Virus record (IMG/VR): IMGVR_UViG_3300028920_000026
Coordinates: 128,001-190,723 of that record
From: a virus
Direction: 5' to 3' (one strand)
DNA: 62,723 nucleotides
Shown here piece by piece: positions 4,491-53,729 of the stretch (within the stretch, counting starts at the first letter, position 1; each line of letters opens with the position of its first letter). The notes beneath the pieces are model-generated. The model was not told the DNA's origin and did not search any database. It saw nothing but the letters and a program-made list of their open reading frames with translations. The position numbers were made by a program, and so were the translations under genes.

Positions 4491-4752
4491 CCTCGTCGCG
4501 CGCTTCCTTCACGACCTTTACAAGAAGTACGACGATAGGTTCATTGCTAACGACCGGGTATTTTGAGACCTTGTCAATTTCAGCGTGGACCTTTATTAAG
4601 ACTTTCTTCGAACGTTCGAGAAAATCCTCCTCATCATTGCGCAGGTCCTCAAGCGAGAGCAAACGACCAGAAAGCCGCAAAGACGCGTTTGCTATAAAAA
4701 AAAGGAAGACCAACGTGATGATGTTTGTAACGATGAGGAGGGTGGTAAGCAT
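4399..4752 (-). CDS. Small membrane protein (one predicted N-terminal TM helix)
   Basis: An internal ATG at 4750-4752 overlaps the TAA stop of the upstream glycosyltransferase (TAATG). The hydrophobic stretch LLIVTNIITLVFLFFIANASL predicts one TM helix. Function unknown. Confidence 0.3.
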   Translation of the reverse strand: MLTTLLIVTNIITLVFLFFIANASLRLSGRLLSLEDLRNDEEDFLERSKKVLIKVHAEIDKVSKYPVVSNEPIVVLLVKVVKEARDEVASLLDDFAAEEEPDDRPNTNAFHGTNEGT

Positions 4753-5921
4753 TATGTCAGCTGCTCCTTGAATGTATCTTCGTATATGTTTGCGATCTTC
4801 TCGAAGCCGTACATGTTGAGCAGCTTGTTTTTGAGCGCCGCGGCCCATTCGTTCGGTTTTAACGAGTTATCGTAGAACTTTCGAACACGACGCTTGAAAT
4901 CAGCCTCAGAGGCTTCAGCCCACCTTGTACCAGGAACGAAGATCTTGTTGTCGATTCTTGAACTATGGATTTCCTTAAGATCATAGTGGACCTGAATAAA
5001 GCGTCCGTGCTTCATAAAGTCCATGTGTCCAGACCACGGTGTTGCGATAACAGGAAGCCCGCTGACCGCTGCTTCAAGGATAGGCAAACCATAACCTTCG
5101 CCACGAGTGATTGCAACGAGGGCTTTCACTGACGGGTGTCTGTAGATCGTGGCTACCTGTTCGTCCGTTAGGCTTCCATGTATGACATGGATTCGCGGGA
5201 ACTCTCCTACGCGGACCTCCTTGATCAGGTCTGTCGTCATCTGAAAGACGCGCTCGCGGTCAATTTTTGTGTTCCTTGCTGTGTTTGTTTTCAAAACAAT
5301 GCCCACATCAGGGTTGTCCTTGAACTCTTCACATAACCACCTGATCGTGAAGAAGATGTTCTTCCTGTCGTTGTATGGGTTCGTACCTGTGATTTGCCCA
5401 AACACCAGAAAGTTGTGTTTCGTTGACGTTTCACCGAGTGGACATTCAGGAAGCGCTTCATCCGGCAACGCGATCGAATCATGAAACGATTCTGGGATCA
5501 CATACATCGGAACTTTGACCTCGCCTGCATTCGTCAGAGACTTTGCCGAGTGTTCTGATGGGACGACGATTGCATCCATTGCATTGCAGTGATTCACCCA
5601 TTCTGGGCTTGCTCTGTCGGTTTCAACGGCCGCAGTGACACCAACGTTGAACTTTGCAATCTTGGGATCCCACTCGTTCGGCAGCTGGACCTGAAAACTA
5701 ACGTCTGCCTGCCCTTCCATCGGCTTAGAGAAGTTCATAAGTTTACCGATCAGCCCATTTTGGGCGTCCGGCGTGAGGTGCCATGGCGTGATCCCCCAAG
5801 GAAGTGCTCCGACGTAGAGGTCAATGTTGTTCCTTTCGACAAGCCATCGCGCGATCTGGCGCGAGTGCACCCCATAACCCGACTGCGTAAAAACCGGGCC
5901 TCTGATGAAAACCTTCTTCAT
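4752..5921 (-). CDS. Glycosyltransferase, GT4/GT1 (retaining GT-B) family
   Basis: The C-terminal EGYGLPILEAAVSGLPVIATPWSG matches the E-x7-E motif of GT4 enzymes. The start was trimmed to the ATG at 5919-5921, which overlaps the stop of the next GT. Confidence 0.65.
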   Translation of the reverse strand: MKKVFIRGPVFTQSGYGVHSRQIARWLVERNNIDLYVGALPWGITPWHLTPDAQNGLIGKLMNFSKPMEGQADVSFQVQLPNEWDPKIAKFNVGVTAAVETDRASPEWVNHCNAMDAIVVPSEHSAKSLTNAGEVKVPMYVIPESFHDSIALPDEALPECPLGETSTKHNFLVFGQITGTNPYNDRKNIFFTIRWLCEEFKDNPDVGIVLKTNTARNTKIDRERVFQMTTDLIKEVRVGEFPRIHVIHGSLTDEQVATIYRHPSVKALVAITRGEGYGLPILEAAVSGLPVIATPWSGHMDFMKHGRFIQVHYDLKEIHSSRIDNKIFVPGTRWAEASEADFKRRVRKFYDNSLKPNEWAAALKNKLLNMYGFEKIANIYEDTFKEQLT

Positions 5922-7159
5922 TAGAACTCCTTCGTCGTCCAGGGCGTGTAGCTCCAGTTTGCGATTGTGTGCTGCAGCGTCTCGTCCCAGCTTGTGACCA
6001 TCTGTTCGATCCTGTAGTCCCGGATGCAGTGTTCCCTGCACTTTTCGCCGAGCGCACGACGTTCGTCTGCACCGAATTCGTACATCTTCATGATCGCATC
6101 AGTGAACGTCTTGTTGCTGACAAAGTCCTCGTAGATGTACGGAATCATCTGGTTTCCAACACAACATCTGACCTCTGGATCGAGCGCGATTCCGTAGTTA
6201 AACCCATCGATGTGGTCCTCAACCTGTCTGCCAAGTCCACCAGTCTTGATCGCGATCGCTGGCGTACCTGCGAGCTTTCCTTCAAGGATCGGTAAACCGA
6301 AGCCTTCGTTGCACGATCTGTTCAGCTGTACGTCAGCGATGTTGTAGATGACATTCATCATGTCAAAGCCGATCCTGTCCTTCGAATAGGTGACGTTGTC
6401 CTTCACGCCCATCTTGTCTGTCACCTGGAACAGGTCGGAACCTTCCTTGTCTTTGGGATCGGTGTGAAGCAGCAACGTTGCCTTTCGATGACCATGATTC
6501 CTTTCAAGTTCATCGAGGAAGTCCTTCCACGATACGATGATGTCATTGACCATCTTACGACGAGCGTTCCTGCCGACGTACAGGGCGATGAAGTGATCCT
6601 CTCGTTCCTTGCCAAGCAGGTTGCGCTTGTGCATCTTGATGTCCTCTTCCGAGAGCGGCTTGTAGAGCTCTGACGGAACGGCATGAGGAACGTAGTGGGT
6701 GCGTTCTGGGAACCATGAACGCACCATCTCGTACGTTGGATAGTTGATGCAGTTGATCAGGTCGGTGCTTTCGTACAGCACACGGTTGAATTCTGGGCGT
6801 GGGTCATTGTCCCACAGGTGATTGTAGACGATGGGACAGATCTGGTGGATCTCGTCTTCCATCTCCCAGACCCACATGAAGAACCTCGGATCCGTGAACA
6901 GGAACAGCGCATCAGGCTTTTCTGAAACGAGTACCTGGCGCAGCATGTTCGGATTTCCGAACCCGTCGGTCGGCTTGATGATGAAGTCATCGTTCACGAC
7001 AACGGTTCTGTAGTCATCGTGTTTGATTGCCGCTCCGAAGCATCGAAACGAATAACGGCCTGTCTTCAACAGACCGTCGATCAACCACCTCGCCTGCGTA
7101 CCCACGCCGCTCGTAGAGAGAGGGTGGTCAGCCAACATCACGATCTTGGACTTTGGCAT
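5921..7159 (-). CDS. Glycosyltransferase, GT4/GT1 family
   Basis: The motif NEGFGLPILEGKLAGTPAIAIKTGG (E-x7-E) is present. The protein is 412 aa. Confidence 0.65.
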   Translation of the reverse strand: MPKSKIVMLADHPLSTSGVGTQARWLIDGLLKTGRYSFRCFGAAIKHDDYRTVVVNDDFIIKPTDGFGNPNMLRQVLVSEKPDALFLFTDPRFFMWVWEMEDEIHQICPIVYNHLWDNDPRPEFNRVLYESTDLINCINYPTYEMVRSWFPERTHYVPHAVPSELYKPLSEEDIKMHKRNLLGKEREDHFIALYVGRNARRKMVNDIIVSWKDFLDELERNHGHRKATLLLHTDPKDKEGSDLFQVTDKMGVKDNVTYSKDRIGFDMMNVIYNIADVQLNRSCNEGFGLPILEGKLAGTPAIAIKTGGLGRQVEDHIDGFNYGIALDPEVRCCVGNQMIPYIYEDFVSNKTFTDAIMKMYEFGADERRALGEKCREHCIRDYRIEQMVTSWDETLQHTIANWSYTPWTTKEF

Positions 7160-7243: not shown

Positions 7244-8167
7244 TTATATCTGTCTGTAGATGGAATCGCAGTGCTCGGTCCCAAAATAATCGCACCACTT
7301 GCAACCCGTCCTGTCCTTGATTGCAATACCGCGGTGGAGCGTGACAAGCATATCTTTGACGAGTTTGCCAGCTCGTTCCGACGTAATGTCACCGACTGAG
7401 ACCGGGAAGAAATCACACAGCGTTCCAGGCTTTCCTTCCCTTTTTAGGATGACAAACGCACACCTGACGTCCTTGAAGTTTGCACCTGTCTTCTGACACC
7501 AGAAGCGTTTGTAGAGGATGAGCTGGTTCTTGGTCATCACGTCCTGCTTCTTTTCCTTGAACCAACCACGCGTCGAAGTCTTCCAATCGATGAGCCACGT
7601 AAGCCGCTTCTTGCCGCGCTTGTCAAGGCACGTGATCACACCATCGATGAAGCCTTTAAACGCGTGTTCGAAGCCCTCGACCTGCTCGTAGAGCTGGTGT
7701 TCAGCCTCAACGAACTCCCAGTTCGGAAAGTTGTCATCCATGAACGCAGGTATCTCTGCGAGGATTGCTCGAGCCTGCTTCTTCCACGTTTCCCGCCCCT
7801 GTACAATGACTCTACCACGAGGCGTCTTGATGTCAACCTTTGAGAACGATTGTTTCCATTTCTCGAGGTCATCACCCGAGAGGACGTCCGATGGTGGGTT
7901 TGCTCGCATCTTGTCCCACATTTTGTCGATCATGTCAGTCGCAATCTCGACCTTCATCTTGCGCGTTTCGAGGAAGTCCTGCAGCGCAGCGTGAATGGCT
8001 GTTCCAAACAGTGCATGGACGTTTTGAACATACTTGTCGAGCTTGTCGATCTGGGCAAGCTTGTGTGCCCAGGTACATCCAAACCACATCGAGAGTTCAG
8101 AAAACGAGACGTGAGGTTTTCCAGTCGGAAGATTCACAAGGTTCAGCTTTACCTTCTTTTTTGTCAT
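7244..8167 (-). CDS. Cas4/RecB-family PD-(D/E)xK exonuclease with a 4-Cys Fe-S signature
   Basis: Motifs FKGFIDGV ... LIDWKTS ... QLILYKRFW (D, D-x-K, QxxxY) are present. The cysteines are one N-terminal Cys (FGCTW) and the C-terminal CKWCDYFGTEHC. The start was trimmed to the ATG at 8165-8167 because the first 26 codons of the track ORF are simply the reverse translation of the tRNA gene. Confidence 0.55.
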   Translation of the reverse strand: MTKKKVKLNLVNLPTGKPHVSFSELSMWFGCTWAHKLAQIDKLDKYVQNVHALFGTAIHAALQDFLETRKMKVEIATDMIDKMWDKMRANPPSDVLSGDDLEKWKQSFSKVDIKTPRGRVIVQGRETWKKQARAILAEIPAFMDDNFPNWEFVEAEHQLYEQVEGFEHAFKGFIDGVITCLDKRGKKRLTWLIDWKTSTRGWFKEKKQDVMTKNQLILYKRFWCQKTGANFKDVRCAFVILKREGKPGTLCDFFPVSVGDITSERAGKLVKDMLVTLHRGIAIKDRTGCKWCDYFGTEHCDSIYRQI

Positions 8168-8184
8168 CGTTCGTCCCCTTTCAG

Positions 8185-8259
8185 CGCCTCCAGAGGGATT
8201 CGAACCCTCGACATTTCCGCGTTTTAAAGACGCGTGCTCTACCACTGAGCTACAGAGGC
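8185..8259 (-). tRNA. tRNA with anticodon 5'-UUA-3' (would decode UAA; ochre-suppressor-type), class I, no encoded CCA
   Basis: The minus-strand read is GCCTCTG-TA-GCTC-AGTGGTA-GAGC-A-CGCGT-CTTTAAA-ACGCG-GAAATGTC-GAGGG-TTCGAAT-CCCTC-TGGAGGC-G. The anticodon stem (CGCGT/ACGCG) is a perfect 5 bp and the loop is 7 nt (C32 U33 UUA A37 A38). The canonical D-arm has G18G19, and the T-loop is TTCGAAT. The acceptor stem has two G-U pairs. The variable region is 8 nt, which is slightly atypical. Confidence 0.6.
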
Positions 8260-8739
8260 GAAATGTTTCTGATAAAAGCGTTTTGAATTGATACTTCTGT
8301 GTGTTTGCCCCTTACCGATGTTTTTGCCCTTGTATGTGTCAGTTTGAGCATGACAATTTGGACAAATAAGACGTAGATTTTCTTTCTTATTGTTTGTGAT
8401 GTTACCATCAATGTGATCAATTTCAATGAGAATTAAACGTGACATCCATGTTGTATTTTTGCATATTTCGCACAAATGACCACGTTCTTTTATGAGACGT
8501 CTTTTTCTCGCAGCATCGGAACGCAACTCATCAAATGATTTTTGATGAGTTGCAATGTTATGAGAAATCAACGCACCCTTTGATTCAAACCTTAAGCCAC
8601 AAATTCTACATTGATGATTTGAACGTCTATATTCTTTGCGTTTTGGAATTTCTCCCTTTCGAACATGACCCGAAATGTGACCAGTAAGTTGTTCTTTTGA
8701 AGAACACTCTTGACCACAATGATGACATTTTAAGATCAT
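8239..8739 (-). CDS. HNH homing endonuclease with N-terminal C2H2-type zinc fingers
   Basis: The HNH core is EIDHIDGNITNNKKENLRLICPNCH. There are two CxxC...HxxxH fingers (CHHCGQ...H, CRICGL...H). The last 7 codons and the TAG stop lie inside the 5' end of the tRNA gene. Confidence 0.7.
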   Translation of the reverse strand: MILKCHHCGQECSSKEQLTGHISGHVRKGEIPKRKEYRRSNHQCRICGLRFESKGALISHNIATHQKSFDELRSDAARKRRLIKERGHLCEICKNTTWMSRLILIEIDHIDGNITNNKKENLRLICPNCHAQTDTYKGKNIGKGQTHRSINSKRFYQKHFASVAQW

Positions 8740-8743
8740 CTAC

Positions 8744-9076
8744 TCATTTTAACGCAAGTGAGAGCGATTTACAAATGGATTTCGCTGATGGTTCAAGCGC
8801 GATGGCCGTAAGTTGGTCGCCGATGTCTGGTTCATGGAACTGGGCGACTTTGTAGTCTCCCATCCTTGCCATCTCGACAAGTTCTTTTAAGAAATATTCG
8901 TTAGGAACCTCGAGCAACGCAATGTAGTTGCTACGCTCAAACCATTCACGATCGAGCTCAGGAAACTCTGCAGTGAATTGTCTAAGCGCATGAGCTGCCT
9001 GTACTGCCCGGTATCCCGGGGCGACCTCGCCCCGGGTCACTAGGTACAGCTTGTCGCCTTCCTTTATCCGCGCCAT
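8744..9076 (-). CDS. Peptidyl-tRNA hydrolase, PTH2 family-like
   Basis: The 110-aa product carries ...GYRAVQAAHAL... (compare the GK.AAQ..HA motif of Pth2). Downstream, W...ALLEVPNEYFLKELVEMARMGDYKVAQFHEPDIGDQLTAIALEP follows the Pth2 fold pattern (W..G..KVVLKV..E.EL..L...A...GL....DAG.T....GT.TVLAIGP). Confidence 0.5.
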   Translation of the reverse strand: MARIKEGDKLYLVTRGEVAPGYRAVQAAHALRQFTAEFPELDREWFERSNYIALLEVPNEYFLKELVEMARMGDYKVAQFHEPDIGDQLTAIALEPSAKSICKSLSLALK

Positions 9077-9079
9077 GGC

Positions 9080-9397
9080 CTACTCATTCATCCATTCAAG
9101 AATTCTTGAGTCGGTCACAAGGACCCTCGATGCGACCTCGCGAGCCAGTACCTTGACCTCCCATTCATTGAGGGATGTCTTCTTTTCCATCAGCCTGTAC
9201 GGTGTACCGCTGAGGAACCCTCTCGCGATGTGGATCGTCCTGCCGTCGCGCTTCTCATTCGTCTTGATCAGAGCGATCGCCTGAGCATCCTCGTGATCCT
9301 TGCGACTACGACAAACAAGCTTTGCGTGACGAAGCTCACGCACCTTTGCAACATGGCCCTTTAGTTCAGCCTTGAGCGTCAATTCTATATGCGACAT
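9080..9397 (-). CDS. Hypothetical protein (105 aa), basic
   Basis: ORF coupled to the Pth2-like gene (its stop lies 1 nt from the Pth2 start). No motif recognised. Confidence 0.35.
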   Translation of the reverse strand: MSHIELTLKAELKGHVAKVRELRHAKLVCRSRKDHEDAQAIALIKTNEKRDGRTIHIARGFLSGTPYRLMEKKTSLNEWEVKVLAREVASRVLVTDSRILEWMNE

Positions 9398-10788: not shown

Positions 10789-11211
10789 CTACGAACGCAT
10801 CTTAACTTCAATCGTCGACAGGTCGACTTCCTTTTGATCTGCCTGCTTTGCACGCTCTGCTCGTAGGTTGCGGAACCTGATCCCGCAGTAGATCATACCT
10901 CGGACAAGGACCGCTGCTGACTTTCTGAGCCCATGCAGCGCCTTTGGGACGACGACCGGAGACCCATGTCCCTGGTTGGATTCACCAGGATTGTCTGCCC
11001 AATCTGCTGCCGTTCTGTCCATGTAGACTCGAGCGAGGTTCAAGAACCTCGGCACGGTGCGTGCCTCGTCTGCTATGCGCCGTGGAAGGTCGTTTTGGTA
11101 CTCGAGTTCCGACCAGATCGCTTCGGTGGCCTGATCAAACTCTTCACGTGTGATTATTCGACTCATTGCTTGTTCTTTGCTGGATACAAGCACTTCGAAC
11201 ATGGACCACAC
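10789..11211 (-). CDS. Hypothetical protein (140 aa)
   Basis: ORF only. Confidence 0.3.
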   Translation of the reverse strand: MWSMFEVLVSSKEQAMSRIITREEFDQATEAIWSELEYQNDLPRRIADEARTVPRFLNLARVYMDRTAADWADNPGESNQGHGSPVVVPKALHGLRKSAAVLVRGMIYCGIRFRNLRAERAKQADQKEVDLSTIEVKMRS

Positions 11212-11981
11212 CTATGGCGTTCGCTCTGCCCAAAGAAGTCTGGTGGACAGACCATACGGCGATGTTCCTGAGAAAGGCCTTGCCACCACGAGTGATCCGT
11301 CATCTTTTCGAGCTTCTTGCCCGTCAGCTTGTCTTCACCGTCTCGAGCTCGCAGGTCGTAGTCTGGGAAGATGACTGACCCACTCGGCAGGTCGTCTGGA
11401 ACTGTTCCATCGCACGTGAGGTAGCAGATGCGAAGACCGGGCCAGCAGTCGTACAGTTCCTTTGCCTTTCTGTAGTTCCTTGAATCGGCAGAGAGGTTGA
11501 CTGCTAGATTCTTTGCGTCGAGGTCCTGCACAACGTCGAACGTTCGCGTGTAGATCCAGTGCCGCACGTTAGAAGAGAACTTTGCAACCTTTGCGATCCA
11601 ACGAGCGTGCCTGTCGTTCATTACGTCGCCGCTCACATGCCAGCGGAAACCGTCTGAGCAGTGTTCACCGATCCATGCTGCAAACGCTGCAGCTGTATCG
11701 TACATCGATGATTCTGACATGAGGATCCGGTGCATGACACGTTCGTTCTTGCAGTACTCGGCATACACCTCAGGCGCGTGCTTCTGCAGACCATACACGT
11801 AGCACGACTTCATGCAGTCCTCTGTTGCACCGGGACACGTTGAGATGTGTGGCAGGCTCAGCGCGTTCGGAACAGGCACCTCGTAAGAGCCATTGCCAAC
11901 AGTAATCTTGCTGTTCCCATCAACATAGAGCGAAAGCCCGTCACCGACATTGATCAGTTCCTTTACGTACGTCGTCGCCAT
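11163..11981 (-). CDS. Cys-rich hypothetical protein (272 aa)
   Basis: Long ORF with conserved-looking cysteine clusters (CPGATEDCMKSCY near the N-terminus; CGPCSKC at the C-terminus). No confident family assignment. Confidence 0.35.
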   Translation of the reverse strand: MATTYVKELINVGDGLSLYVDGNSKITVGNGSYEVPVPNALSLPHISTCPGATEDCMKSCYVYGLQKHAPEVYAEYCKNERVMHRILMSESSMYDTAAAFAAWIGEHCSDGFRWHVSGDVMNDRHARWIAKVAKFSSNVRHWIYTRTFDVVQDLDAKNLAVNLSADSRNYRKAKELYDCWPGLRICYLTCDGTVPDDLPSGSVIFPDYDLRARDGEDKLTGKKLEKMTDHSWWQGLSQEHRRMVCPPDFFGQSERHRCGPCSKCLYPAKNKQ

Positions 11982-12250
11982 TTCAAAACAACCTTCTTGA
12001 GAAGAATCCTCAACTTTTCAAAAATGCCCGCCTTGACGTCTGGAACTGTTCCACTTGAGAGCTTATCGCCTGAAGCTTCACCGGTAAGGCGGGCAAAGAC
12101 CTTTTCGAAGTTTTTGGAGTGACATTCCTCTGAGCAGAACCAAAGAGAACGTCCACGTCCACCTACCCAACAATTCTCATGTGGTCCAGTGATGAGCCTG
12201 CTGATGGAAAAATGTTTACCACAACCATTACACGGAAGATCATCAGTCAT
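11963..12250 (-). CDS. Small zinc-ribbon protein
   Basis: An internal ATG at 12248-12250 abuts the stop of the dehydrogenase gene. The protein carries CNGCGKH...C..EEC. Confidence 0.3.
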   Translation of the reverse strand: MTDDLPCNGCGKHFSISRLITGPHENCWVGGRGRSLWFCSEECHSKNFEKVFARLTGEASGDKLSSGTVPDVKAGIFEKLRILLKKVVLKWRRRT

Positions 12251-13226
12251 CTGAAACTGCGCGCCCAACCAGAAGTTCCCAGTCACGGTGTTCGGGAGGT
12301 CGAACCTCAAGGTTCTTCTTCATTGCGCCTTCAATAACGACAGGTTCTACACCGACCTGCCGCGCTACGTATGCAAGCGCGTTCATGTCCTTCGGGAAGC
12401 AGTGTCCCCCAAAGCCTCGAACATGCTTGCCGTCAACGACAACGGGACCAGGTACCGCCCAGTGCGAACCTCCGATGCGTTGATCGTACTTAACGTATTC
12501 AACGACCTTGTCGTAGTCAACGTTCAGGCCAAGCTTGTCAAGCGCGGTACAGATGTCGTACATCTCGTTTGCGAACGAGACCTTCGTGGCGAGAAAGCAG
12601 TTGATCGTGTACTTCACGAGCTCGGCCGTCGTCGAAGACGTCTTGATGATCGGAACCTTTGGGTACGCTGCTTGATACGTAAGCTTGACGTCATTGATCC
12701 AAGGACGCGGTCCACCGAGGATGATGCGTGTCTGGTTCAGAAAATCATCAATTGCATTCGCTTCAGTGAGAAATTCAGGATTGAAGATCACATGCAATCC
12801 GTATTTGTTGAACATCTCGTTCCAACGTTCCGTAGAACCAGGAGGACACGTTGATTTGACAACGGCAATGCGTTCACCGTCTACGCTTGCAAGCTCTTCA
12901 AGCACGGACTCAACGATGCGCGTATCTGCTGAACCATCCTTGCGCATCGGAGTAGGAACACCGACAAAGTAGATGCGAGTAAAGTCGATCTTTTCGTCGT
13001 TTTCGATCTTCTTGACAAACTCAGGTAGAGGCTTCACCTCATCGAAGCGCGGAACACCTTTTTTGTATGTCAAGGCGCCATTGATGATCTTGCCTCGGCG
13101 GCGTGGGTCAGCAACTTTTCCCGCCTTATCATAAGCATACACGTCAAATGCATGGCACATACCGACAGAAAGAGACCCACCCACAAAACCCTGTCCAATA
13201 CAGGCAATTGCTCGTTTGTTATTCAT
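12243..13226 (-). CDS. Nucleotide-sugar 6-dehydrogenase (UDP-glucose/GDP-mannose dehydrogenase family)
   Basis: The N-terminus has a Rossmann motif, IACIGQGFVGGS. NPEFLTEANAIDDFLNQTRIILGG matches NPEFLREG...DRIV.G. GFGGHCFPKD matches the catalytic-Cys motif GFGGSCFPKD. Confidence 0.65.
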   Translation of the reverse strand: MNNKRAIACIGQGFVGGSLSVGMCHAFDVYAYDKAGKVADPRRRGKIINGALTYKKGVPRFDEVKPLPEFVKKIENDEKIDFTRIYFVGVPTPMRKDGSADTRIVESVLEELASVDGERIAVVKSTCPPGSTERWNEMFNKYGLHVIFNPEFLTEANAIDDFLNQTRIILGGPRPWINDVKLTYQAAYPKVPIIKTSSTTAELVKYTINCFLATKVSFANEMYDICTALDKLGLNVDYDKVVEYVKYDQRIGGSHWAVPGPVVVDGKHVRGFGGHCFPKDMNALAYVARQVGVEPVVIEGAMKKNLEVRPPEHRDWELLVGRAVSDD

Positions 13227-13921
13227 ATCCTTGCATCCTTATGATTGAGTTCATGTAAAAACTCTCTGTAACCTTGGGTGGTTAACTCATCTTGAGTTAA
13301 CCAATTTAATTCGTAGTTGTTTTGAATACAAAATGTTTGAAGTGCTGATTTTTTCACACCAGCCTTAACATCATATCCTTTGACTTCTTCAATGATTTTT
13401 TGCTTTTTTGATAACCTTACAATCAAAAAGTCAGGAACATAATGTTTTGTCGATCCTTCAAACTCATACGCAATGCTAATTCCGTGTCGTTTTGTCCATG
13501 AAATAACATCATTATCATGATCAAGCTGATGCATACGAAACAGTTCAAGCGCGGAATCAGCATAAAACACTTCATTCATCTTTGTAGATTTGTACGTGCT
13601 CTTTCTACTATGAACAAAGTTATTCTTTATCCTTCCAGACGCGATCCCTTCTGATCTTTTCTTCGACATTACCTGTCGCGTTTCATCGGAATGTTGCTTT
13701 CCAAAGAAGGGATTATTCTCAGCGCTTTGGTTCCTATCAATTGTGCTTTTACCGATTATTTTTCGAGTCTCTTTGGTATGCTTCTTACCAAAGAAAGGAT
13801 TACCTGGTCCTTTATGAAGACAAGATCTGCAGACACGCTTGTATTTTTCAGCGTTGTGCATTGTTGCAGATGTTTTGTAACAAATCCTCTTATTACACTT
13901 TGGGCACAATCTTTCAAACAC
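13223..13921 (-). CDS. Homing-endonuclease-like protein: zinc ribbon + two NUMOD3 motifs + C-terminal PD-(D/E)xK nuclease domain
   Basis: The N-terminus has CPKCN...CRSC. Two NUMOD3-type repeats are present (NPFFGKKHTKETRKIIGKS and NPFFGKQHSDETRQVMSKK). The C-terminal ...ISWTKRHGISIAYEFE...YVPDFLIV...EEVKG is a paralog of the C-termini of the 45507, 49048 and 52421 ORFs. An ATGA overlap joins it to the dehydrogenase gene. Confidence 0.55.
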   Translation of the reverse strand: MFERLCPKCNKRICYKTSATMHNAEKYKRVCRSCLHKGPGNPFFGKKHTKETRKIIGKSTIDRNQSAENNPFFGKQHSDETRQVMSKKRSEGIASGRIKNNFVHSRKSTYKSTKMNEVFYADSALELFRMHQLDHDNDVISWTKRHGISIAYEFEGSTKHYVPDFLIVRLSKKQKIIEEVKGYDVKAGVKKSALQTFCIQNNYELNWLTQDELTTQGYREFLHELNHKDARI

Positions 13922-13951
13922 AAAATCAATTGTACGGAACGTACGTACTGT

Positions 13952-14575
13952 CTACAAACGTACAAAAAATGCAAGTTCGCCACCGACCTGCTCAGCCGGT
14001 GTCTTGAGCGGTCGTGTACCATACCTGTAGTTCACGCCTTCTACGCTGATAGCTACACCTGTTTCTTTTGATAGTTCAGCTGAAACGTCTTCATCGGATG
14101 CATTCGACCTGGGCTGCATGAAGTCGAACACAGACGGGTCCTTTTCTGTAGGCTTCGCTTGGACGGGTAGGACTACGTAGACGCCTATCTTTGCGACCTG
14201 TAACATGCGTTTCAGCATCTCAGGAGCGTTGTTTGAGTGTTCCAACGAATGGCACGTATACACGATGTCATAGCTGTTTTCACCAAACCTATCAACGATG
14301 TCGTGCATGTCCATCTTGACGATGTACTCCTCAGGGGCATCAAGGAGGTCGAGTCCAAGCGCTTCGTACCCAGCGTCGCGGAAGTCCTTGACCTCGCTGA
14401 AGTGCCTCGCTCCGACACAGAGGATCGACTGTGCATCTGGTGCGATCTTCTTGAGCACCTTGATGTCGTGGACGCGGACATCGTGCCGGTTGACAGTCCT
14501 GTGTCGCGTCTTCTCGTGGCGATCTACCTGGATTCGCGTGTACTCGTCGTGCGATCCGTAACTGTACCTCTTCAT
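13952..14575 (-). CDS. Class I SAM-dependent methyltransferase
   Basis: ILCVGARHFSEVKDF (motif I-like) and DIVYTCHSLEH (motif II/III-like) are present. The protein is 207 aa. Confidence 0.5.
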   Translation of the reverse strand: MKRYSYGSHDEYTRIQVDRHEKTRHRTVNRHDVRVHDIKVLKKIAPDAQSILCVGARHFSEVKDFRDAGYEALGLDLLDAPEEYIVKMDMHDIVDRFGENSYDIVYTCHSLEHSNNAPEMLKRMLQVAKIGVYVVLPVQAKPTEKDPSVFDFMQPRSNASDEDVSAELSKETGVAISVEGVNYRYGTRPLKTPAEQVGGELAFFVRL

Positions 14576-14588
14576 CCCGTCCTCCCAT

Positions 14589-15536
14589 TCAGCCGTTTAG
14601 GCATTGCTCGAACATCTTCCTGTATTGCGGCCACATGAGTTCGCGGCGCATGGTCCTGACGTTGTTGTACGCGACACCGATGTTTGGATCAGCATAAACG
14701 ACGTTCTCATGGATGCTTTCAGGCGCAAGCACCTGTTCAGCGATCCCGACGGGCGTGCTGACGATAGGTACACGCATCGCTGCAGCCTCGAGTATCGACT
14801 GCGGACCACCCTCGTGACGAGCAGTGACGAGATAGATGCTGCATGCCCTGTACATCGTTCTGATTGTCTCGAGTGGCGGGCGTTCGATGTACGTGTAGCC
14901 GATACCGACGCTATCGAGCCTGTTCATGATGTACTGACGACGCCATCCGCCGAGTAGCACACGCACCTTTTCAGGCGTTAATGATTCTTTAACGATGTGT
15001 TCTACAGCGTCACAGAACAGGTCTGGTCCTTTTTCGAGCTTCGGAGACTTCAGGTCGTGTCCCTCTGTGTCGCGCTGGAACGAACCAACGATGTACTCGT
15101 CCAGATTGAGGTTGAGTACTTCCCTTGCCACAAGCATGGCTTCCGTCTCCGTACCGACGACATCCGGTGGCGTCCAGAACTCGTCGTTGTACCAGTACCT
15201 CGTGACGACGATAGGCTTTGATGTCAGCCGCCTGATGAATTCTGCTGTCCTTTCATTGAAGCAGTGGTAGAGGTTCGTGACGGTGTCCCTCACGTAGAAG
15301 TCGCGCTTCTGCGCATGTCCAAACTTCTCAGGAACGATGTGATGGACAGTCGTGACGACCCTTTTTGACTGAAGATCGAACGGACTTACCTTGTCCCACG
15401 CCCAGTCTGCAAGCAACCAGATCACATCAGCTTCAGATGGACGATTGACGGCAATGTCTTGGTTTCCTTCGAACCATTCGTCGACCATGCGATCAACGAT
15501 CCAGTCCTCACCAGGAGGAAGCGCGTAGACCCTCAT
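14589..15536 (-). CDS. Glycosyltransferase (GT-B, GT4-like)
   Basis: VTARHEGGPQSILEAAAMRVPIVSTPVG is an E-x7-E-type motif. Confidence 0.55.
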   Translation of the reverse strand: MRVYALPPGEDWIVDRMVDEWFEGNQDIAVNRPSEADVIWLLADWAWDKVSPFDLQSKRVVTTVHHIVPEKFGHAQKRDFYVRDTVTNLYHCFNERTAEFIRRLTSKPIVVTRYWYNDEFWTPPDVVGTETEAMLVAREVLNLNLDEYIVGSFQRDTEGHDLKSPKLEKGPDLFCDAVEHIVKESLTPEKVRVLLGGWRRQYIMNRLDSVGIGYTYIERPPLETIRTMYRACSIYLVTARHEGGPQSILEAAAMRVPIVSTPVGIAEQVLAPESIHENVVYADPNIGVAYNNVRTMRRELMWPQYRKMFEQCLNG

Positions 15537-16513
15537 CGTGTGTTCTCCATGATCTTTGACAGTAAAAATTTTTCTAATTCACTGTCTGATAATGATTTTA
15601 CTTCAGAATAGTAGATCCTAATAAGCTTCATGTTCAACGATTTGAACAATTCATCTTGTACCTGATCTTTAGCTCGACGTTTTTGAGTATGTAAGTATTT
15701 TTTTGACGCTTTTGAAAGACCATGCCAAAATTCACCATCGTGTTCGATCCAAACATCAATTGATTTGATGTAAAAATCAACGGGATGTTTGTTGAACCAT
15801 TTTGGATGTTGAACATCATCATTTCCAAAAATTATCTGAAGTGCCTGCAGGATGCGTGCTTCAATCTTTGTTGTCTTAAACAGGTTGATACCTTTACGTT
15901 CCTTCGTTGCAAGCGCCTTTGCATTGACAACAGGATTTTGCATCGCATTTTTTGTTCCATATTTCTGTATGCACGTCGCCTCAATCTTTTCTTTTGCACC
16001 TGGCATTTGTGCAGGAGACTTCACACCGTGTTTTTCAAATGTTTCAAACGCTTTTTTGTGTGCCTTGTCTGCGAATTCTTTTACTTGAAGAGGATGTTCG
16101 ACTCCATAACGTTCTTTGAACGTTGAACGCATTGTGTTGATTGAAGATGTTCTGATCGTTTGATCACACATCGGATTTTCACCACCGTAACGTTCAACGC
16201 ATGTTTTACGACGTTTTTGTTCAATCATTGGTGATTGAATTGGACGCTCTGCGCCATAACGTTCAACATTTGTACGTTCCTGTGCATTGCACAACACTCC
16301 ACCTTTTTTACGAGCGTTTAATACACACCGTGTATTGCAAAAATGTAACCTAGACCTAGAACCTTTGAGACGATGTGTTCTCGTAAATTCCTGTTTGCAT
16401 TGATCACATTTATAAACATAGACGTTACGTTTGCATTTGCGTTGCGCTGAATTTACATATGTTTCCTTATCGATTCTTAAGAGCATACGATAGAATGTCC
16501 TCATACGCCTCAA
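15533..16513 (-). CDS. Putative homing endonuclease / DNA-binding protein with five tandem ERYG-type repeats and a C-terminal nuclease-like domain
   Basis: The N-terminus has a zinc ribbon, CDQCKQ...C. The repeats are VERYGAERPIQSP, VERYGGENPMCDQ, KERYGVEHPLQVKEF, FEKHGVKSPAQMPG and IQKYGTKNAMQNPVV. The C-terminal ...DFYIKSIDVWIEHDGEFWHG... resembles Vsr/PD-(D/E)xK-like nucleases. It is inserted between two glycosyltransferase genes. Confidence 0.4.
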   Translation of the reverse strand: MRRMRTFYRMLLRIDKETYVNSAQRKCKRNVYVYKCDQCKQEFTRTHRLKGSRSRLHFCNTRCVLNARKKGGVLCNAQERTNVERYGAERPIQSPMIEQKRRKTCVERYGGENPMCDQTIRTSSINTMRSTFKERYGVEHPLQVKEFADKAHKKAFETFEKHGVKSPAQMPGAKEKIEATCIQKYGTKNAMQNPVVNAKALATKERKGINLFKTTKIEARILQALQIIFGNDDVQHPKWFNKHPVDFYIKSIDVWIEHDGEFWHGLSKASKKYLHTQKRRAKDQVQDELFKSLNMKLIRIYYSEVKSLSDSELEKFLLSKIMENTR

Positions 16514-17453
16514 CTACGTATTTGATGTCAACAATAGAACCCATTGCGTATCGTTGCGCGGAATCAAAATCCTTCCAGACGATGTCTTGCTCGACGATAA
16601 TGTCCGGTGGATTATCGTAGTCACGAAGAGTATAGTCATATGCAACTTGTTCCTGTAGCAAAATTCCATTCACTCCTACGAGTTCACGAGTGCCTCCGTC
16701 TGATGTGTGGATAACAGGACATCCACACCCAAGTGATTCAACGACTGTATTCGGTGAATGATCCAACCACGCAAGATGAATCATATAGTCTGCCTGTGAA
16801 TAGACCTGTAGGCATGCCTCGTGAGAGATGCTGCCGGCGTAGAAGATCGATGGTTTGATGTATCTATCGACGGATCTTAACGCCGCAGCGTCAGCGTTGT
16901 TTCCCAGGATCAGCAACCCGGCGTTTGGAAATTTCGTACGCTTCAGGTGTTGAAAAAATTCAACGTTTGCCTTGAGGCGCTTCTGAGGGTGCCAGTTCGA
17001 TGAACAGACAAAAAGCTTATCAAAATCATTGCGTAGGTTCTGAAGTGATACCTGTTGTTGCTGTGTGAGGGCTGTTCTGATCTCGAGCGGATCGATCCCG
17101 TTGTGAATCACTGCGTCGTATTTGTGCTCGCCCCACCAACCTGTGACCTGCTTCCTGTTGAACTCCGACTGAAACACGACCGCCGTTGCAGCATCATAGG
17201 TCCTCTTGATGCCCACGTTCTTCACAGAAAACTCGTCTGGTTTGAACCAGATACCATCAAGACGTTGCACGAATGGTTTGCTCGTGTCCAACCGTGGGCT
17301 CTGTTCGATGAACACGATTGCAACATCGTAGTCATCTGGATCTGCGAGAATGTGTCCACGGTTTGCAAGCGCCTTAGCGAGGCGCTTTGCGAACGAGTTT
17401 GGTCCCGATCGCGATGACATGTCTACGTTGTCAAAGTAGATTTTCAATTCCAT
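16467..17453 (-). CDS. Glycosyltransferase (GT-B fold, GT1/GT4-like)
   Basis: 328-aa ORF. GCGCPVIHTSDGGTRELV resembles the C-terminal donor-binding region of GT-B enzymes. Confidence 0.45.
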   Translation of the reverse strand: MELKIYFDNVDMSSRSGPNSFAKRLAKALANRGHILADPDDYDVAIVFIEQSPRLDTSKPFVQRLDGIWFKPDEFSVKNVGIKRTYDAATAVVFQSEFNRKQVTGWWGEHKYDAVIHNGIDPLEIRTALTQQQQVSLQNLRNDFDKLFVCSSNWHPQKRLKANVEFFQHLKRTKFPNAGLLILGNNADAAALRSVDRYIKPSIFYAGSISHEACLQVYSQADYMIHLAWLDHSPNTVVESLGCGCPVIHTSDGGTRELVGVNGILLQEQVAYDYTLRDYDNPPDIIVEQDIVWKDFDSAQRYAMGSIVDIKYVVEAYEDILSYALKNR

Positions 17454-17828
17454 GATCCTGACGTTAGTTGTTGTAATTCATCATTTACGTAGACCTACAT
17501 ACGTCCACTATCAATCTCTTGACGACCGTAAGTGTTTCGTGCTAGTTCCCTCGCTGCATTGCGTTCCTTGATAAAACGAGCGCTAACATACATCAGGCAT
17601 GGAAACCTTGCCTTGTCTATTGATGACGTGTTGCGCATTGTTCTATAACGTTAGCACTAAAATAAGAACATCGATGAATTCCTTGAGAATCATGTTCAAG
17701 CTGTTTCTGGCGGTACCAGTCGGCCTTGTCAAATTTCCCAATGGACCTTAAAAAGAGTTCGTGTTTTTCGAGCACTGAGATTGTTGACATTAAATGATCT
17801 CTTGAGCGTTCAAATGGGTAGAGATTCC

Positions 17829-18215
17829 TTATGAACGTTTCTTGATTACTGCAACAATTTCCGCGAGTACTGGCGTTCCATGCAGGAGGACACCACACAG
17901 GGCGAGCTCTGACGTGGGCATGTCATCATGTTTCACACGTTCAGTAAAGATGTTCGGATTGAGCTCATCTCTTCCATTGATGGAAACCATATCATAGTAT
18001 GCCTGCGCGACAAAGTTGATGCCCTTGTCTGTGATGCCGTTCTTCAGTGTTGGAATCATCAGGACTATCTCTTGAAGCGCAAGAAAGATGTCCTGATAGA
18101 TCAGTGTACAGCTTTCCTTGTCGGATGGGTCATGACCCCGATGCTTTTGTAACTTTGCCTCAATCGCCCTCTTGACGGCGTCTTCAATCTGCTTATGTGT
18201 GATCTGCGTTCCCAC
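17829..18215 (-). CDS. Hypothetical protein (128 aa)
   Basis: ORF within the glycosyltransferase cluster. Confidence 0.3.
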   Translation of the reverse strand: MGTQITHKQIEDAVKRAIEAKLQKHRGHDPSDKESCTLIYQDIFLALQEIVLMIPTLKNGITDKGINFVAQAYYDMVSINGRDELNPNIFTERVKHDDMPTSELALCGVLLHGTPVLAEIVAVIKKRS

Positions 18216-19203
18216 TTGTCACCGCCTTTATGAATTCACAGTATCGTTCGATGCACGTTTGCCAATCGATGAGCGTGTCCTTGCTTGGAACGGTCCATGA
18301 ACCAGCAGTGAGCTTTTCAACTAGTTCTTCAAACGAATCATACAACAAACACTCATCATTGCCAACAAATTCCGGCCCAGCGCCTCCGTCTCGACGGACG
18401 AATGTAGGCATGTCGCATGCAATCGCCTCTAGAACGTGGTTCGGTCCTGGTTCTGCACGTGACGCAGAGACGTACACATCATACCTACCGAGCTCGTTAC
18501 CAAGGGCTTTTCCATAAAGCGGCTTGATGACCTTTGTATTCTTGAACGTACCTCGATCTCGTCCGATGTAGGTGAATGTGAAGCCTGGATTCTGTCCGAT
18601 CCACTCATCAAGTTGATTGTAGATGTCAAAACCCTTCAATTCATGGTTCGACCAATGATGGGTTACGATGTTGTTTTTATCATTGTCGATCGCGTCTTGG
18701 CATCGAAAGACATCGCGGTCCACGCCATTCCTGACGACGGTCGTTTGCTTGCACGCCCACCCGTCGTTCCTTGTGAAGTAGTCTTTGATGTACTCGCTTA
18801 CAAAGATCGTTCCGTCGATGTACCTGCTTGCAGTACGCCAGTTTGCATCAACGTGGTTTGTTCCCTTTCTTGCATCGTTCTCGTTGACACGAAGAAACAG
18901 CGGAACATTGATTCCGAACTGTGACTGGAACATCTTGTACTGCACGAGCTGCTGCAGCCCAGCACCAAGCGTCTGCTGATCAGTCTCCAGCCCGATCAAG
19001 AGCGCGGCGTCAGGTGCAGTGTTGTGATCCTGTGGACTGATGATCTCAACGTCAAACTTTTCGGCGTATTTGAAAAGGGCCTTGACAAACATGTTTCCGC
19101 CGCCCCACGGCCCTCGAACAGGCGCTCTATTCACGTAGAGTTTCATTGTCATGCGTCTTTGTTGTCCATTGATGTCACAAGCTTGGTGTAATATTCCTGC
19201 CAC
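18193..19203 (-). CDS. Glycosyltransferase (GT4-like)
   Basis: EPGPNHVLEAIACDMPTFVRRDGGAGPEFVG is an E-x7-E-like donor-binding motif. Confidence 0.5.
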   Translation of the reverse strand: MAGILHQACDINGQQRRMTMKLYVNRAPVRGPWGGGNMFVKALFKYAEKFDVEIISPQDHNTAPDAALLIGLETDQQTLGAGLQQLVQYKMFQSQFGINVPLFLRVNENDARKGTNHVDANWRTASRYIDGTIFVSEYIKDYFTRNDGWACKQTTVVRNGVDRDVFRCQDAIDNDKNNIVTHHWSNHELKGFDIYNQLDEWIGQNPGFTFTYIGRDRGTFKNTKVIKPLYGKALGNELGRYDVYVSASRAEPGPNHVLEAIACDMPTFVRRDGGAGPEFVGNDECLLYDSFEELVEKLTAGSWTVPSKDTLIDWQTCIERYCEFIKAVTSGNADHT

Positions 19204-19206
19204 TTG

Positions 19207-19485
19207 CTAATCGTCGTTCCTTGCCATGTCACGCATCGTGTTTAGAGATTCCTCGCCATCGATCCAGACGAGTGCCTGGACGAATCCTAACCATCTCATT
19301 GCCTTTTCGATGTGATCCTCTGCAACGAATTCAACGATCCTGTCACACATCCACGCCGCATGCGGGTAGACCTCGTCGGGATCTGGATGTCCGACCTCGT
19401 CGTACGATTCAACAGGCATCTGCTGAGGGTTTGGAAGGAGTGTCTTATAGTGAGCAGCTAGCTCGAGAACCTTTTCTTTTGTCAT
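19207..19485 (-). CDS. Hypothetical protein (92 aa)
   Basis: Small ORF coupled between two glycosyltransferase genes. Confidence 0.3.
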   Translation of the reverse strand: MTKEKVLELAAHYKTLLPNPQQMPVESYDEVGHPDPDEVYPHAAWMCDRIVEFVAEDHIEKAMRWLGFVQALVWIDGEESLNTMRDMARNDD

Positions 19486-20243
19486 ATTACGTATCCTCTG
19501 CGACGAAGGAATTGAGCCTCGTCGCGTTGGAACCTTGCATCATCTGTTTGGTACGTTTCCGGTACATCTTCGATGGTATAGTGGTACATCACACGTGGTA
19601 GAAATACGCGCTTGCCGGCATTTCTTAACACTGGCAAGTAGATCGCTTGGTCACCCGCACGCTGAATGTATTCTCCATCCTCACCGCGAAAGTTTTCGTC
19701 ACATACATCGTTGAGCAAACGCTTTTTGAACGTCTTTAGGTGGCTTGTGACCCAAGGATGTACGTATGGATCTGCATCGTCAGGAAGCGGTCCACTGATA
19801 TTCTTGTCACTGTAACCCCACCTGTGTGCTGTCCACAACGCATTGCACTTAGTATCATTGTACGCTTCATTGATGATGTGCAATGCGTCGAGGTCGACCA
19901 ACCAATCGTCTGCGTCGATGCGACAGACGATGTCCTCATCGCAGCACGCTTCGTTTATTCCGTAAATGACATTTGCAACTTCCCACTTCTTTTCGCTGTT
20001 CCACTTCACTTTTAAGTGTCGACAACCTTGATCACGTAGCGATCTGAACCTCGTGATGACTCGAGCCTCCTCCTCGCGTTCGTTAGGACTCGAAAGATCA
20101 TCTATGAGATAGAGCATCCACTTTGAATAAGACTGCCCGTACAGCGAATGTAGTAGCCTAGGAAGCGTCGCACTAGCATTGTACATCGGCGCGATGAAGA
20201 CGAATCTATTCTCACGTCGTGTGATGTCTGTGAAGTTTACCAT
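19482..20243 (-). CDS. Glycosyltransferase family 2 (GT-A fold)
   Basis: FIAPMYNASATLPRLLHSL...LIDDLSSP matches the GT2 N-terminal pattern, and RIDADDW is the DXD motif. ATGA coupling links it to the upstream gene. Confidence 0.6.
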   Translation of the reverse strand: MVNFTDITRRENRFVFIAPMYNASATLPRLLHSLYGQSYSKWMLYLIDDLSSPNEREEEARVITRFRSLRDQGCRHLKVKWNSEKKWEVANVIYGINEACCDEDIVCRIDADDWLVDLDALHIINEAYNDTKCNALWTAHRWGYSDKNISGPLPDDADPYVHPWVTSHLKTFKKRLLNDVCDENFRGEDGEYIQRAGDQAIYLPVLRNAGKRVFLPRVMYHYTIEDVPETYQTDDARFQRDEAQFLRRRGYVI

Positions 20244-30733: not shown

Positions 30734-30810
30734 GAGGTTTATGCCTTTCGTGTGATATAGAATCTACTTTGCGTCTACGTTTATGTACAAGGACGAAGAC
30801 AGGAAGACAA

Positions 30811-53615: not shown

Positions 53616-53729
53616 ACTTGTTGTTCGTTGGACAATATTGCGTGCATACGCTGGATATCGATGTCATTTATCATATAAATGTAGGTAGACTTGCCAGATC
53701 TAGGCGTATGTTGTACCTTTGATTTCACT

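Follow-up and report, generated by a model that had tools for sequence, protein, structure and literature searches.

Gene content of the locus

This work concerns a transfer RNA (tRNA) gene with the ochre anticodon 5'-UUA-3' in the virus record IMGVR_UViG_3300028920_000026 of IMG/VR. The stretch analysed, hereafter the window, spans 62,723 nucleotides (positions 128,001 to 190,723 of the record), and its own numbering is used unless another locus is named. As judged from the comparison of related loci, the tRNA can be regarded as one allele of a conserved jumbo-phage cassette, which consists of a gene of the peptidyl-tRNA hydrolase 2 superfamily (PTH2-like) and one or two tRNAs with stop anticodons. 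The following features lie at the locus:

7244-8167, minus strand: PD-(D/E)XK exonuclease (Pfam PF12705, E=2.6e-13)
8185-8259, minus strand: tRNA with anticodon 5'-UUA-3' (ARAGORN, Rfam, minimum free energy fold, covariation)
8239-8739, minus strand: HNH homing endonuclease, 166 aa, with N-terminal C2H2 zinc fingers (PHROG HNH families down to E=5.7e-26; Pfam HNH/zf-C2H2)
8744-9076, minus strand: PTH2-like protein, 110 aa (Pfam, family profile, synteny)
9080-9397, minus strand: open reading frame (ORF) of 105 aa, function not assigned, immediately upstream of the PTH2-like gene

Read along the minus strand, the order is PTH2-like gene (8744-9076), HNH gene (8239-8739), tRNA and exonuclease gene (7244-8167), the last of which begins 17 nt downstream of the tRNA. 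A preliminary description, made from the letters of the DNA, had the tRNA flanked by an HNH endonuclease and a Pth2-like hydrolase. This is correct for the HNH side, whereas on the other side it is the exonuclease gene that adjoins the tRNA, and the PTH2-like gene is located beyond the HNH gene. The description missed that the comparative data suggest the PTH2-like gene as the functional partner and that the HNH gene is a lineage-specific insertion.

The HNH gene runs into the 5' part of the tRNA, with which it shares its last 21 nt including the stop codon (8239-8259), and RNase P cleavage of the tRNA would strip this stop codon from a shared transcript. The same layout of an HNH coding sequence overlapping a tRNA is present in mycobacteriophage Catera (NC_008207, 93327-93821; L139 5554-6048). 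In the related loci L002 and L004 the HNH gene is not found at this position and only 17-30 nt separate the PTH2-like gene from the tRNA; it represents an insertion specific to the lineage of the window phage. For the 105-aa ORF at 9080-9397 no Pfam or PHROG match was obtained, and in an all-versus-all clustering of neighbour ORFs it grouped with mostly longer ORFs upstream of PTH2-like genes in 13 loci. A consensus promoter scan, which provides weak evidence, placed a promoter-like site at 9546-9511 on the minus strand.

Structure and sequence of the UUA tRNA

ARAGORN, run over the whole window, made one tRNA-Stop call with anticodon tta at 8184-8259 (-), and Rfam RF00005 matched 8185-8259 (-) over the full model with 63.7 bits (E=1.7e-11), compared with a gathering score of 29. 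The cloverleaf is also the minimum free energy structure of the lone tRNA sequence (-28.8 kcal/mol, z=-2.84 versus shuffles). Read 5' to 3', the molecule is composed of the acceptor strand GCCUCUG, UA, the D arm GCUC/AGUGGUA/GAGC, A, the anticodon stem CGCGU/ACGCG enclosing the loop CUUUAAA, the variable region GAAAUGUC, the T arm GAGGG/UUCGAAU/CCCUC, the acceptor strand UGGAGGC and the discriminator G (8185). The acceptor stem includes the wobble pairs U6.G67 and G7.U66, CCA is not encoded and the body is of class I. With U8, G18G19, U33, T54-Psi55-C56 and a cloverleaf containing G53-C61, together with a score above the gathering threshold, the tRNA has the hallmarks of an elongator tRNA.

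The 7-nt anticodon loop, C32 U33 U34 U35 A36 A37 A38, occupies 8229-8223. Both callers put UUA at positions 34-36 of this loop, so that U34-U35-A36 corresponds to 8227-8225 (-), with U33 on its 5' side and A37-A38 on its 3' side. The canonical minus-strand fold and the UUA anticodon of the preliminary description are thus upheld by ARAGORN, Rfam and the energy-based fold alike, and no other register of the anticodon was favoured by the callers or the fold. The variable region of 8 nt (8217-8210), which the same description had singled out for checking, is real: Infernal models it as an insertion, the alignment identifies it as a 3-nt insertion relative to the 5-nt variable loops of the relatives, and the register of the anticodon is not shifted.

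The neighbouring exonuclease gene recurs with 100% identity on a 331,213-bp contig (ENA ERZ27252253 k141_1101516) and on a 142,810-bp Logan contig. The window corresponds to 170,590-233,312 of the ENA contig in reverse orientation, i.e. to about 19% of its 331 kb; the visible sequence, taken as the window plus about 10 kb on each side, amounts to about 83 kb or about 24%. No second tRNA was found in this span of the window and 10 kb on either side (~83 kb), to which the status as a lone tRNA is limited. The independent Logan assembly (SRR8554435) contains an identical tRNA. At window position 8201, T-loop position 57, the window and the Logan contig carry G (UUCGAAU) and the ENA contig T (UUCUAAU); position 57 of tRNAs is normally a purine, and the ENA contig has a pyrimidine there. 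Over 18,167 aligned bases, the window and the ENA contig differ at no other position. One further single nucleotide polymorphism (SNP) between the two is located at window position 62709.

Conservation of the UUA tRNA in related phages

Relatives were searched for with the exonuclease as syntenic anchor. In L002 and L004, whose exonucleases are 69% and 53% identical to that of the window, a tRNA(UUA) is positioned directly upstream of the exonuclease gene, and the gene that ends 17-30 nt upstream of this tRNA is an orthologue of window 8744-9076. In L099 (IMG/VR, 324 kb), a tRNA(UUA) is located between the PTH2-like gene (63% identical, 261 nt upstream of the tRNA) and the exonuclease gene (54% identical, 5038-5949). 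Compared with the window, the acceptor, anticodon and T stems of these three tRNAs show compensatory changes around a constant loop CUUUAAA. When nine phage UUA tRNAs were aligned, 18 of the 21 base pairs were found with double compensatory substitutions, UUUAAA was invariant, and U33, A37 and A38 were kept in all nine. This combination is the context expected for the reading of codons that start with U (MiaA substrate, 'extended anticodon').

Since the loop is conserved in relatives and the same tRNA occurs in a second assembly, a sequencing error, which the preliminary description had considered for position 34, is excluded, as is a fresh point mutation. The conserved loop shows that the UUA anticodon is under selection.

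The relatives also document losses. L003 (exonuclease 67% identical) retains at 5657-5716 a tRNA-like remnant with acceptor, D and T arms that has lost the anticodon arm and gives no ARAGORN call; no PTH2-like gene was found near this remnant. L005, L006 and L007 have no tRNA at the exonuclease locus, and within the 3-21 kb retrieved per exonuclease locus a PTH2-like gene was not found in L003, L005, L006 or L007. The tRNA and the PTH2-like gene accordingly show a co-loss pattern in the relatives.

Searches of IMG/VR with the exact tRNA pattern and with the single exonuclease protein gave no match. A degenerate D-arm/loop pattern gave 11 matches, of which only L012 and L018 are canonical UUA tRNAs, and L008 has an 8-nt loop. 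The other eight were rejected as UUA tRNAs, as tRNA 5' halves are followed there by non-tRNA sequence. These 5' halves (L009, L010, L011, L013-L017), situated in IMG/VR tRNA arrays, end in ...CUUUAAA, are not called by ARAGORN and probably reflect an intron in the anticodon loop. The phage tRNA of L008 (5192-5268; loop CUUUAAAG, ARAGORN 'ttaa', CCA encoded) is a possible quadruplet reader of UUAA or of UAA+1.

The phage is T4-like and uses the standard code in its visible part

The flanks contain a T4-type large terminase, a Peptidase_S77 prohead protease, a Gp23 capsid protein, a gp25-like baseplate protein and very large tail proteins, and because of these genes the phage is assigned to the T4-like jumbo phages. 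A 675-aa ORF adjoining the terminase gene is portal-sized and has no family match. Kinship to sequenced phages is distant: the helicase shares about 30% identity with its counterparts in other jumbo phages, and megablast of the tRNA locus against phage genomes gave no match.

Greedy ORF coverage of the window was 91% in the standard code, compared with 90%, 92% and 90% when TAA, TAG or TGA, respectively, was treated as sense. The 63 window genes end in TAA (16), TAG (16) or TGA (31). Those ending in TAA encode complete proteins with full-length family matches (head-closure protein, RuvC-like resolvase, primase, glycosyltransferases), and no on-strand gene pair in the window is joined by TAA alone as one interrupted gene. 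Read in the standard code, the terminase gene, the 675-aa ORF and the genes for the prohead protease, Gp23 capsid protein, gp25 baseplate protein and large tail proteins are all intact. Neither a gain of coverage with TAA as sense nor a depletion of TAA as terminator, the marks of a recoded phage, was seen in this ~24% of the genome. In its visible part the phage uses the standard code and is not TAA-recoded, just as the preliminary description had supposed; its suggestion of a late-stage code switch is contradicted by the intact terminase, protease, Gp23, gp25 and tail genes. In the window, L002, L004 and L099 alike, the UUA tRNA is conserved while TAA still terminates genes, a Lak-type situation.

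Three apparent signs of TAA reading were discarded. The TAA-ended, same-frame ORFs 52839-53615, 53691-54299 and 54324-55271 do not form one TAA-split gene, as a TGA precedes the third of them; the first encodes a protein of no assigned function, and the other two match the families of RuvC-like resolvases and primases, respectively, over their full length. An in-frame run of exonuclease, TAA and glycosyltransferase is due to chance, being not conserved in L002, L004 and L099 and having similar counterparts for TGA and TAG. An apparent enrichment of TAA-TGA tandem stops is a by-product of TAATGA start/stop overlaps.

Several other genes of this phage deserve mention. A peptide deformylase gene, another translation-related gene, is found among the head-morphogenesis genes about 4.7 kb past the right end of the window (L141 15954-16457). 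Besides the HNH gene, homing-endonuclease-type genes are unusually dense (13223-13921, 42593-43297, 45507-46478 and 49048-50055) and include NUMOD3 with a TnsA-like N domain and GIY-YIG with NUMOD3. The cassette is surrounded by a block of glycosyltransferase genes (GT1, GT2; 4752-7159 and 11163-23819) that also comprises O-methyltransferases and a UDP-glucose dehydrogenase-like gene (12243-13226); this block is conserved in the relatives L002-L007. Further window genes encode a PIN-PhoH fusion (30769-32217), a ClpP protease homologue (27333-27938) and a 1056-aa ORF that joins SbcD-like and SbcC-like regions (55285-58455).

A recurrent association of PTH2-like genes with stop-anticodon tRNAs

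The PTH2-like ORF scored 22.2 bits against PF01981, just under the cutoff of 23 bits, and the same family is precomputed on 45 of its 51 database homologues. Similarity to Pth2 was evident at the profile level: the family profile matched the solved Pth2 structures 2zv3 (E=1.8e-8), 1wn2, 1rzw and human Bit1 1q7s, with E-values from 1.8e-8 to 7.6e-6. Within the phage family His29, Glu82 and Asp84 are invariant.

Loci were retrieved from JGI metagenomes and IMG/VR with an alignment of PTH2-like proteins, i.e. with no tRNA information, which yielded 119 loci, 97 of them unique and many on contigs of 100-530 kb. Cassettes, defined as a PTH2-like gene accompanied on its own strand by a stop-anticodon tRNA at a distance of up to about 2.5 kb, were counted among the 85 unique loci for which the downstream sequence amounted to at least 500 nt. 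In 62 of these 85 loci the first tRNA up to 2.5 kb downstream of the PTH2-like gene was of the stop type (32 CUA, 10 UUA, 1 UCA, 18 with an expanded loop on UUCA and 1 on UCUA). A sense tRNA came first in 7 loci, and 16 had no tRNA, several of these having little downstream sequence. Altogether, 91 of the 116 tRNAs in PTH2-like loci were of the stop type, 81 of the 91 were encoded on the strand of the PTH2-like gene, and the median distance from gene to tRNA was 383 nt. Even in L051 and L066, the two loci with arrays of ordinary tRNAs, the tRNA nearest downstream of the PTH2-like gene is a CUA tRNA. The window falls within the definition with 484 nt between PTH2-like gene and tRNA, the gap being occupied by the HNH insertion.

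The association extends to named phages. In Lak-A1, Lak-B3 and Lak-B5 a UUA tRNA is found 570-680 nt upstream of the PTH2-like gene, with no other tRNA in the 4 kb to either side. The uncultured huge phages LR745208 and LR756500 have a UUA tRNA 123 nt and a CUA tRNA about 785 nt downstream of the gene, respectively, and in the cultured Tenacibaculum phage pT24 an annotated tRNA-Sup (CUA) lies 2.5 kb upstream. Cluster C mycobacteriophages (Myrna, Catera) are an ambiguous case, with the PTH2-like gene in a large array of ordinary tRNAs and a next downstream tRNA whose 9-nt loop contains UCUA. No tRNA was found within 4 kb on either side of the PTH2-like gene in the uncultured phage LR756504 and the cultured Stenotrophomonas phage RAS14.

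Between stop classes, the identity of the tRNA bodies reaches 83-85%. The closest cassette relatives of the window tRNA include CUA tRNAs at 78-79%, which are no more distant than the UUA tRNA of L099 at 75%. Because bodies of different stop classes are so similar, the cassette appears to keep some stop anticodon rather than a particular one, with the anticodon switching between stop codons. Taken together, the comparative data suggest that the PTH2-like gene is a conserved partner of the stop-anticodon tRNA. Mean standard-code coverage was 0.82-0.86 for cassette loci of all anticodon classes, with no meaningful gain under alternative codes; for the window and nine other UUA loci, no gain was seen with TAA or TAG as sense. 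In the UUA loci TAA ends 13% of the genes and is the rarest stop.

Two variations on the cassette tRNA were noted. Eight-nt loops have the form A[C/U]UUCAA[G/C], or contain UCUA or CUUA; ARAGORN labels them '(tc)', '(ttca)', '(tcta)', '(ctta)' or 'Glu(ttc)', and Infernal places an insertion in the loop (for example L021 2624-2698, L024 4984-5132, L036 4347-4420, L062 4677-4749 and L136 4451-4526, among L019-L137). Such tRNAs could be stop+1 quadruplet decoders or impaired decoders. Many cassettes (L025, L062, L088, L091, L060, L074, L120, L124 and others) have tandem pairs of stop-anticodon tRNAs, often an ordinary one (72-78 nt) and a class II-like one with a long variable arm (85-94 nt); long-arm UUA versions exist.

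Other genes recur around the PTH2-like gene as well (L022, L023, L106, L112 and others). A gene with a tRNA-binding domain (PF01588) stands between it and the tRNA in 13 loci, and further neighbours encode a SpoT-like HD_4 hydrolase (13 loci), a Macro-domain protein (17 loci), NMNAT-Nudix (Pfam match, 11 loci) and a 468-aa family (11 loci) for which the label NAMPT was assigned by eye only. A dual-specificity phosphatase is also seen. By its gene content this neighbourhood looks like an island of the tRNA-care or translation-care and counter-defence type. The tRNA_bind, HD_4 and other extra neighbours are absent from the window phage.

Possible function of the UUA tRNA

An efficient general ochre suppressor and a code switch are excluded, because the loci show no recoding, cognate stop codons are not avoided, no stop codon of a conserved neighbour gene tracks the anticodon, and 20 phage UUA tRNAs stayed near background in a cell-free screen. 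The reading that we tentatively prefer, as a possible one, is that the tRNA decodes UAA weakly or conditionally, probably along with UAG through wobble at U34, and works together with the PTH2-like hydrolase. As U33, A37 and A38 are strictly kept around the stop anticodon over deep divergence, the anticodon is probably used on the ribosome, and a weak, non-recoding role fits the normal termination at TAA as well as the presence of a UUA tRNA in Lak phages without TAA recoding.

Under this reading, the tRNA would be co-transcribed with the neighbouring minus-strand genes, excised by RNase P/Z, provided with CCA and charged by a synthetase that tolerates the UUA anticodon, for which Lys and Gln are precedents. 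The alanyl-, seryl- and leucyl-tRNA synthetases are independent of the anticodon; charging by these is unlikely, since the tRNA has no G3:U70 pair and no long variable arm. The charged tRNA would compete poorly with release factors RF1 and RF2, resulting in low-level or conditional readthrough rather than a change of the code. UAA is recognised by both RF1 and RF2, and readthrough at this codon should be kept low for that reason. The PTH2-like enzyme, in turn, might handle acyl- or peptidyl-tRNA by-products or service the tRNA in some other way.

A number of observations weigh against weak UAA decoding with the hydrolase. When the isotype was sought by BLAST against the tRNAs of E. coli and through the nearest neighbours in a set of 129 phage tRNAs, the top values of 0.72-0.77 were spread across Asn, Arg, Lys, Thr and Phe, so that no amino acid could be assigned; the sole support for a Lys-like impression is an 85% match of the L004 tRNA to tRNA-Lys over just 34 nt. 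The window copy carries possible signs of wear, namely the 3-nt variable-loop insertion, the HNH overlap at its 5' end and the G57/U57 polymorphism. Cognate stops are not avoided, as TAA ends 25% of the window genes, TGA 72% of the genes in UCA-like loci and TAG 23% in CUA loci; with the cognate stop so freely used, an efficient suppressor would harm the phage. Among the neighbour genes of the loci, no conserved gene has a stop codon that co-varies with the anticodon of the cassette. Across the relatives with a UUA tRNA, neither a TAA stop nor an in-frame extension is retained in any orthologous gene, and the ~83 kb contain no candidate for the programmed readthrough of particular UAA-ended genes, which the preliminary description had offered as a role. 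About one quarter of the cassette tRNAs have anticodon loops of 8-9 nt and would be poor triplet decoders. In profile-to-PDB alignments of the PTH2-like protein, Gln aligns to the lysine of GK and an invariant Glu-Pro-Asp to DAGxT, and the canonical Lys and Thr are lacking; in archaeal Pth2 the catalytic residues are the Lys of GK and the Asp and Thr of DAGxT. As the GK lysine and the DAGxT motif diverge, the chemistry may differ from that of classical Pth2. Finally, in the E. coli cell-free screen 20 of 20 phage tRNA(UUA) remained near background on UAA, while 90 of 162 CUA tRNAs were active on UAG (PMC12636597).

Some of these points would be accommodated by a role outside decoding, which we consider rather unlikely. 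The tRNA would then serve as substrate, cofactor or decoy for PTH2-like, tRNA-binding or other neighbour proteins, e.g. as acyl carrier or as bait for tRNA-targeting host toxins, and a stop anticodon would be kept only as the class that is unable to mis-insert at sense codons. Such a role would agree with the acceptance of any of the three stop anticodons among homologous cassette tRNAs, the tolerance of 8-9-nt loops, the free use of cognate stops, the activity of 0 of 20 phage UUA tRNAs in cell-free suppression (PMC12636597) and the tRNA-care or counter-defence type neighbours of other loci (tRNA_bind, SpoT-like HD_4, Macro, and the by-eye NAMPT with NMNAT-Nudix). However, the decoding-optimised U33/A37/A38 context is strictly kept in the UUA set, no known non-ribosomal process needs such a tRNA, the window phage has no tRNA_bind and HD_4 neighbours, and related phage CUA tRNAs do decode UAG (PMC12636597).

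It is improbable that the tRNA serves the dedicated readthrough or local recoding of a single gene or a few genes with in-frame or terminal TAA/TAG, located in the other ~250 kb of the genome. Recoded phages classically use their suppressor tRNAs in this way, and the visible share of the 331-kb contig is just ~24%. Yet the late structural genes, which are those normally recoded, are intact, coverage does not rise with TAA or TAG as sense in the window or in nine other UUA loci, a conserved TAA-ended orthologue was not found across the UUA-bearing relatives, and TAA recoding was not found in more than 10,000 jumbo phages (PMC13037316) or in Lak phages (PMC8346664).

It is quite improbable that the tRNA is a decaying or neutral passenger in the window phage while the cassette is functional elsewhere. 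The HNH insertion that splits the cassette and overlaps the tRNA 5' end, the 3-nt variable-loop insertion, the placement of the only SNP in 18 kb between two assemblies on T-loop position 57 (G in the window, U in the other) and the sister phage L003, which is already without an anticodon arm, would all suit decay. They are opposed by intact stems, invariant tRNA nucleotides and anticodon loop, the Rfam score of 63.7 bits, the identical sequence in an independent sample and the intact PTH2-like gene. Release-factor-independent termination or rescue, with the stop codon recognised by the tRNA, the peptide released by the hydrolase and stops remaining stops, could explain the free or even dominant use of cognate stops (TGA 72% in UCA-like loci) and the joint inheritance of tRNA and hydrolase, but is highly improbable, being without known precedent and at odds with the action of Pth2 enzymes on free rather than ribosome-bound peptidyl-tRNA, with the rarity of the cognate stop in UUA loci (13%) and with catalytic motifs that diverge from canonical Pth2.

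Beyond the single locus, the PTH2-like gene and the stop-anticodon tRNA might constitute a two-part device acting at stop codons, through hydrolase-controlled readthrough or release-factor-independent termination. Such a device, which we consider rather unlikely, would be of ancient origin and common to many jumbo and mega phages, its anticodon would change freely between readers of UAA, UAG and UGA, and it would provide standing raw material for repeated stop recoding as in Lak. If the pairing is functional, it accounts for an orphan feature of giant-phage genomes, may show the start of a code change and offers natural tRNA-plus-enzyme parts for genetic-code engineering.

Comparison with known systems

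Laboratory ochre suppressors comprise supG/supL/supN (tRNA-Lys UUA), supB (tRNA-Gln UUA) and the T4 psu ochre alleles. They read UAA and UAG weakly, as both release factors compete at UAA. The window tRNA shares with them the UUA anticodon and a class I body; unlike these single-step, laboratory-selected mutants of sense tRNAs, it occurs naturally and has been retained in phages that have diverged from one another.

Phage-encoded tRNAs with stop anticodons are also known from recoded phages. Those of crAss-like phages, Lak and the 'gemstone' clades are presumably expressed in order to change termination in the course of infection (Borges et al., bioRxiv 10.1101/2021.08.26.457843). In these phages late genes contain in-frame TAG or TGA and coding density gains markedly under the alternative code, neither of which was seen in the visible part of the window phage.

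Among cultured jumbo phages with the standard code, XacN1 (CUA), RsoM2USA (CUA) and Atu_ph07 (UCA) possess suppressor tRNAs without an identified target, and a peptidyl-tRNA hydrolase is encoded in the same genomes. They differ from the window phage in having CUA or UCA rather than UUA, and in XacN1 the tRNA belongs to large tRNA arrays. The reports on the three phages make no mention of a linkage to the hydrolase.

PTH2 itself has been reported as a translation or rescue gene of jumbo phages (Iyer et al. 2021, PMC7824862) and as a core gene of the tRNA arrays of cluster C mycobacteriophages (Morgado & Vicente 2018, PMC5966550). The window protein is of the same family; the difference is that in the environmental jumbo phages the neighbouring tRNA is specifically of the stop type and usually the sole tRNA nearby. 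The papers checked for the pairing of PTH2-like genes with stop-anticodon tRNAs do not mention it. The word 'suppressor' does not occur in PMC7824862 and PMC5966550, nor 'hydrolase' in PMC8346664 and the 2025 screen (PMC12636597).

What suppressor tRNAs are for in standard-code phages is a question raised for XacN1, RsoM2USA, Atu_ph07 and Lak. To this question the locus contributes a natural ochre tRNA whose loop has remained constant while the rest of the molecule drifted, and a recurrent genetic partner, the PTH2-like hydrolase, often accompanied by a protein with a tRNA-binding domain. Cultured phages with a PTH2-like gene and a nearby tRNA of stop type or odd loop are at hand in Tenacibaculum phage pT24 and, less clearly, in cluster C mycobacteriophages.

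A close parallel is provided by the Lak megaphages, in which a TAA-suppressor tRNA is present in 51 of 51 genomes although TAA is not recoded, and in which 13 of the 51 genomes have no CUA tRNA yet are TAG-recoded (Crisci et al. 2021, PMC8346664). A contribution of the Lak UUA tRNA to the reading of UAG would fit these 13 genomes, which we infer from the published counts. No TAA recoding was found among more than 10,000 jumbo phage genomes either (PMC13037316), and of the three stop codons TAA alone is not known to be recoded in phages. Lak and the window phage have in common a UUA tRNA, a huge genome, the absence of TAA recoding and a PTH2-like gene close to the tRNA. Lak phages, however, are TAG-recoded (code 15) and encode RF2 and many tRNAs, whereas the window phage is T4-like and not recoded in its visible part; moreover, the window tRNA is downstream of the PTH2-like gene and those of Lak are upstream, and the tRNA bodies are only distantly similar. 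A UUA tRNA without TAA recoding has therefore already been published for Lak, and the window tRNA adds a T4-like, non-recoded lineage to this phenomenon; the new part is the recurrent pairing of the PTH2-like gene with a stop-anticodon tRNA.

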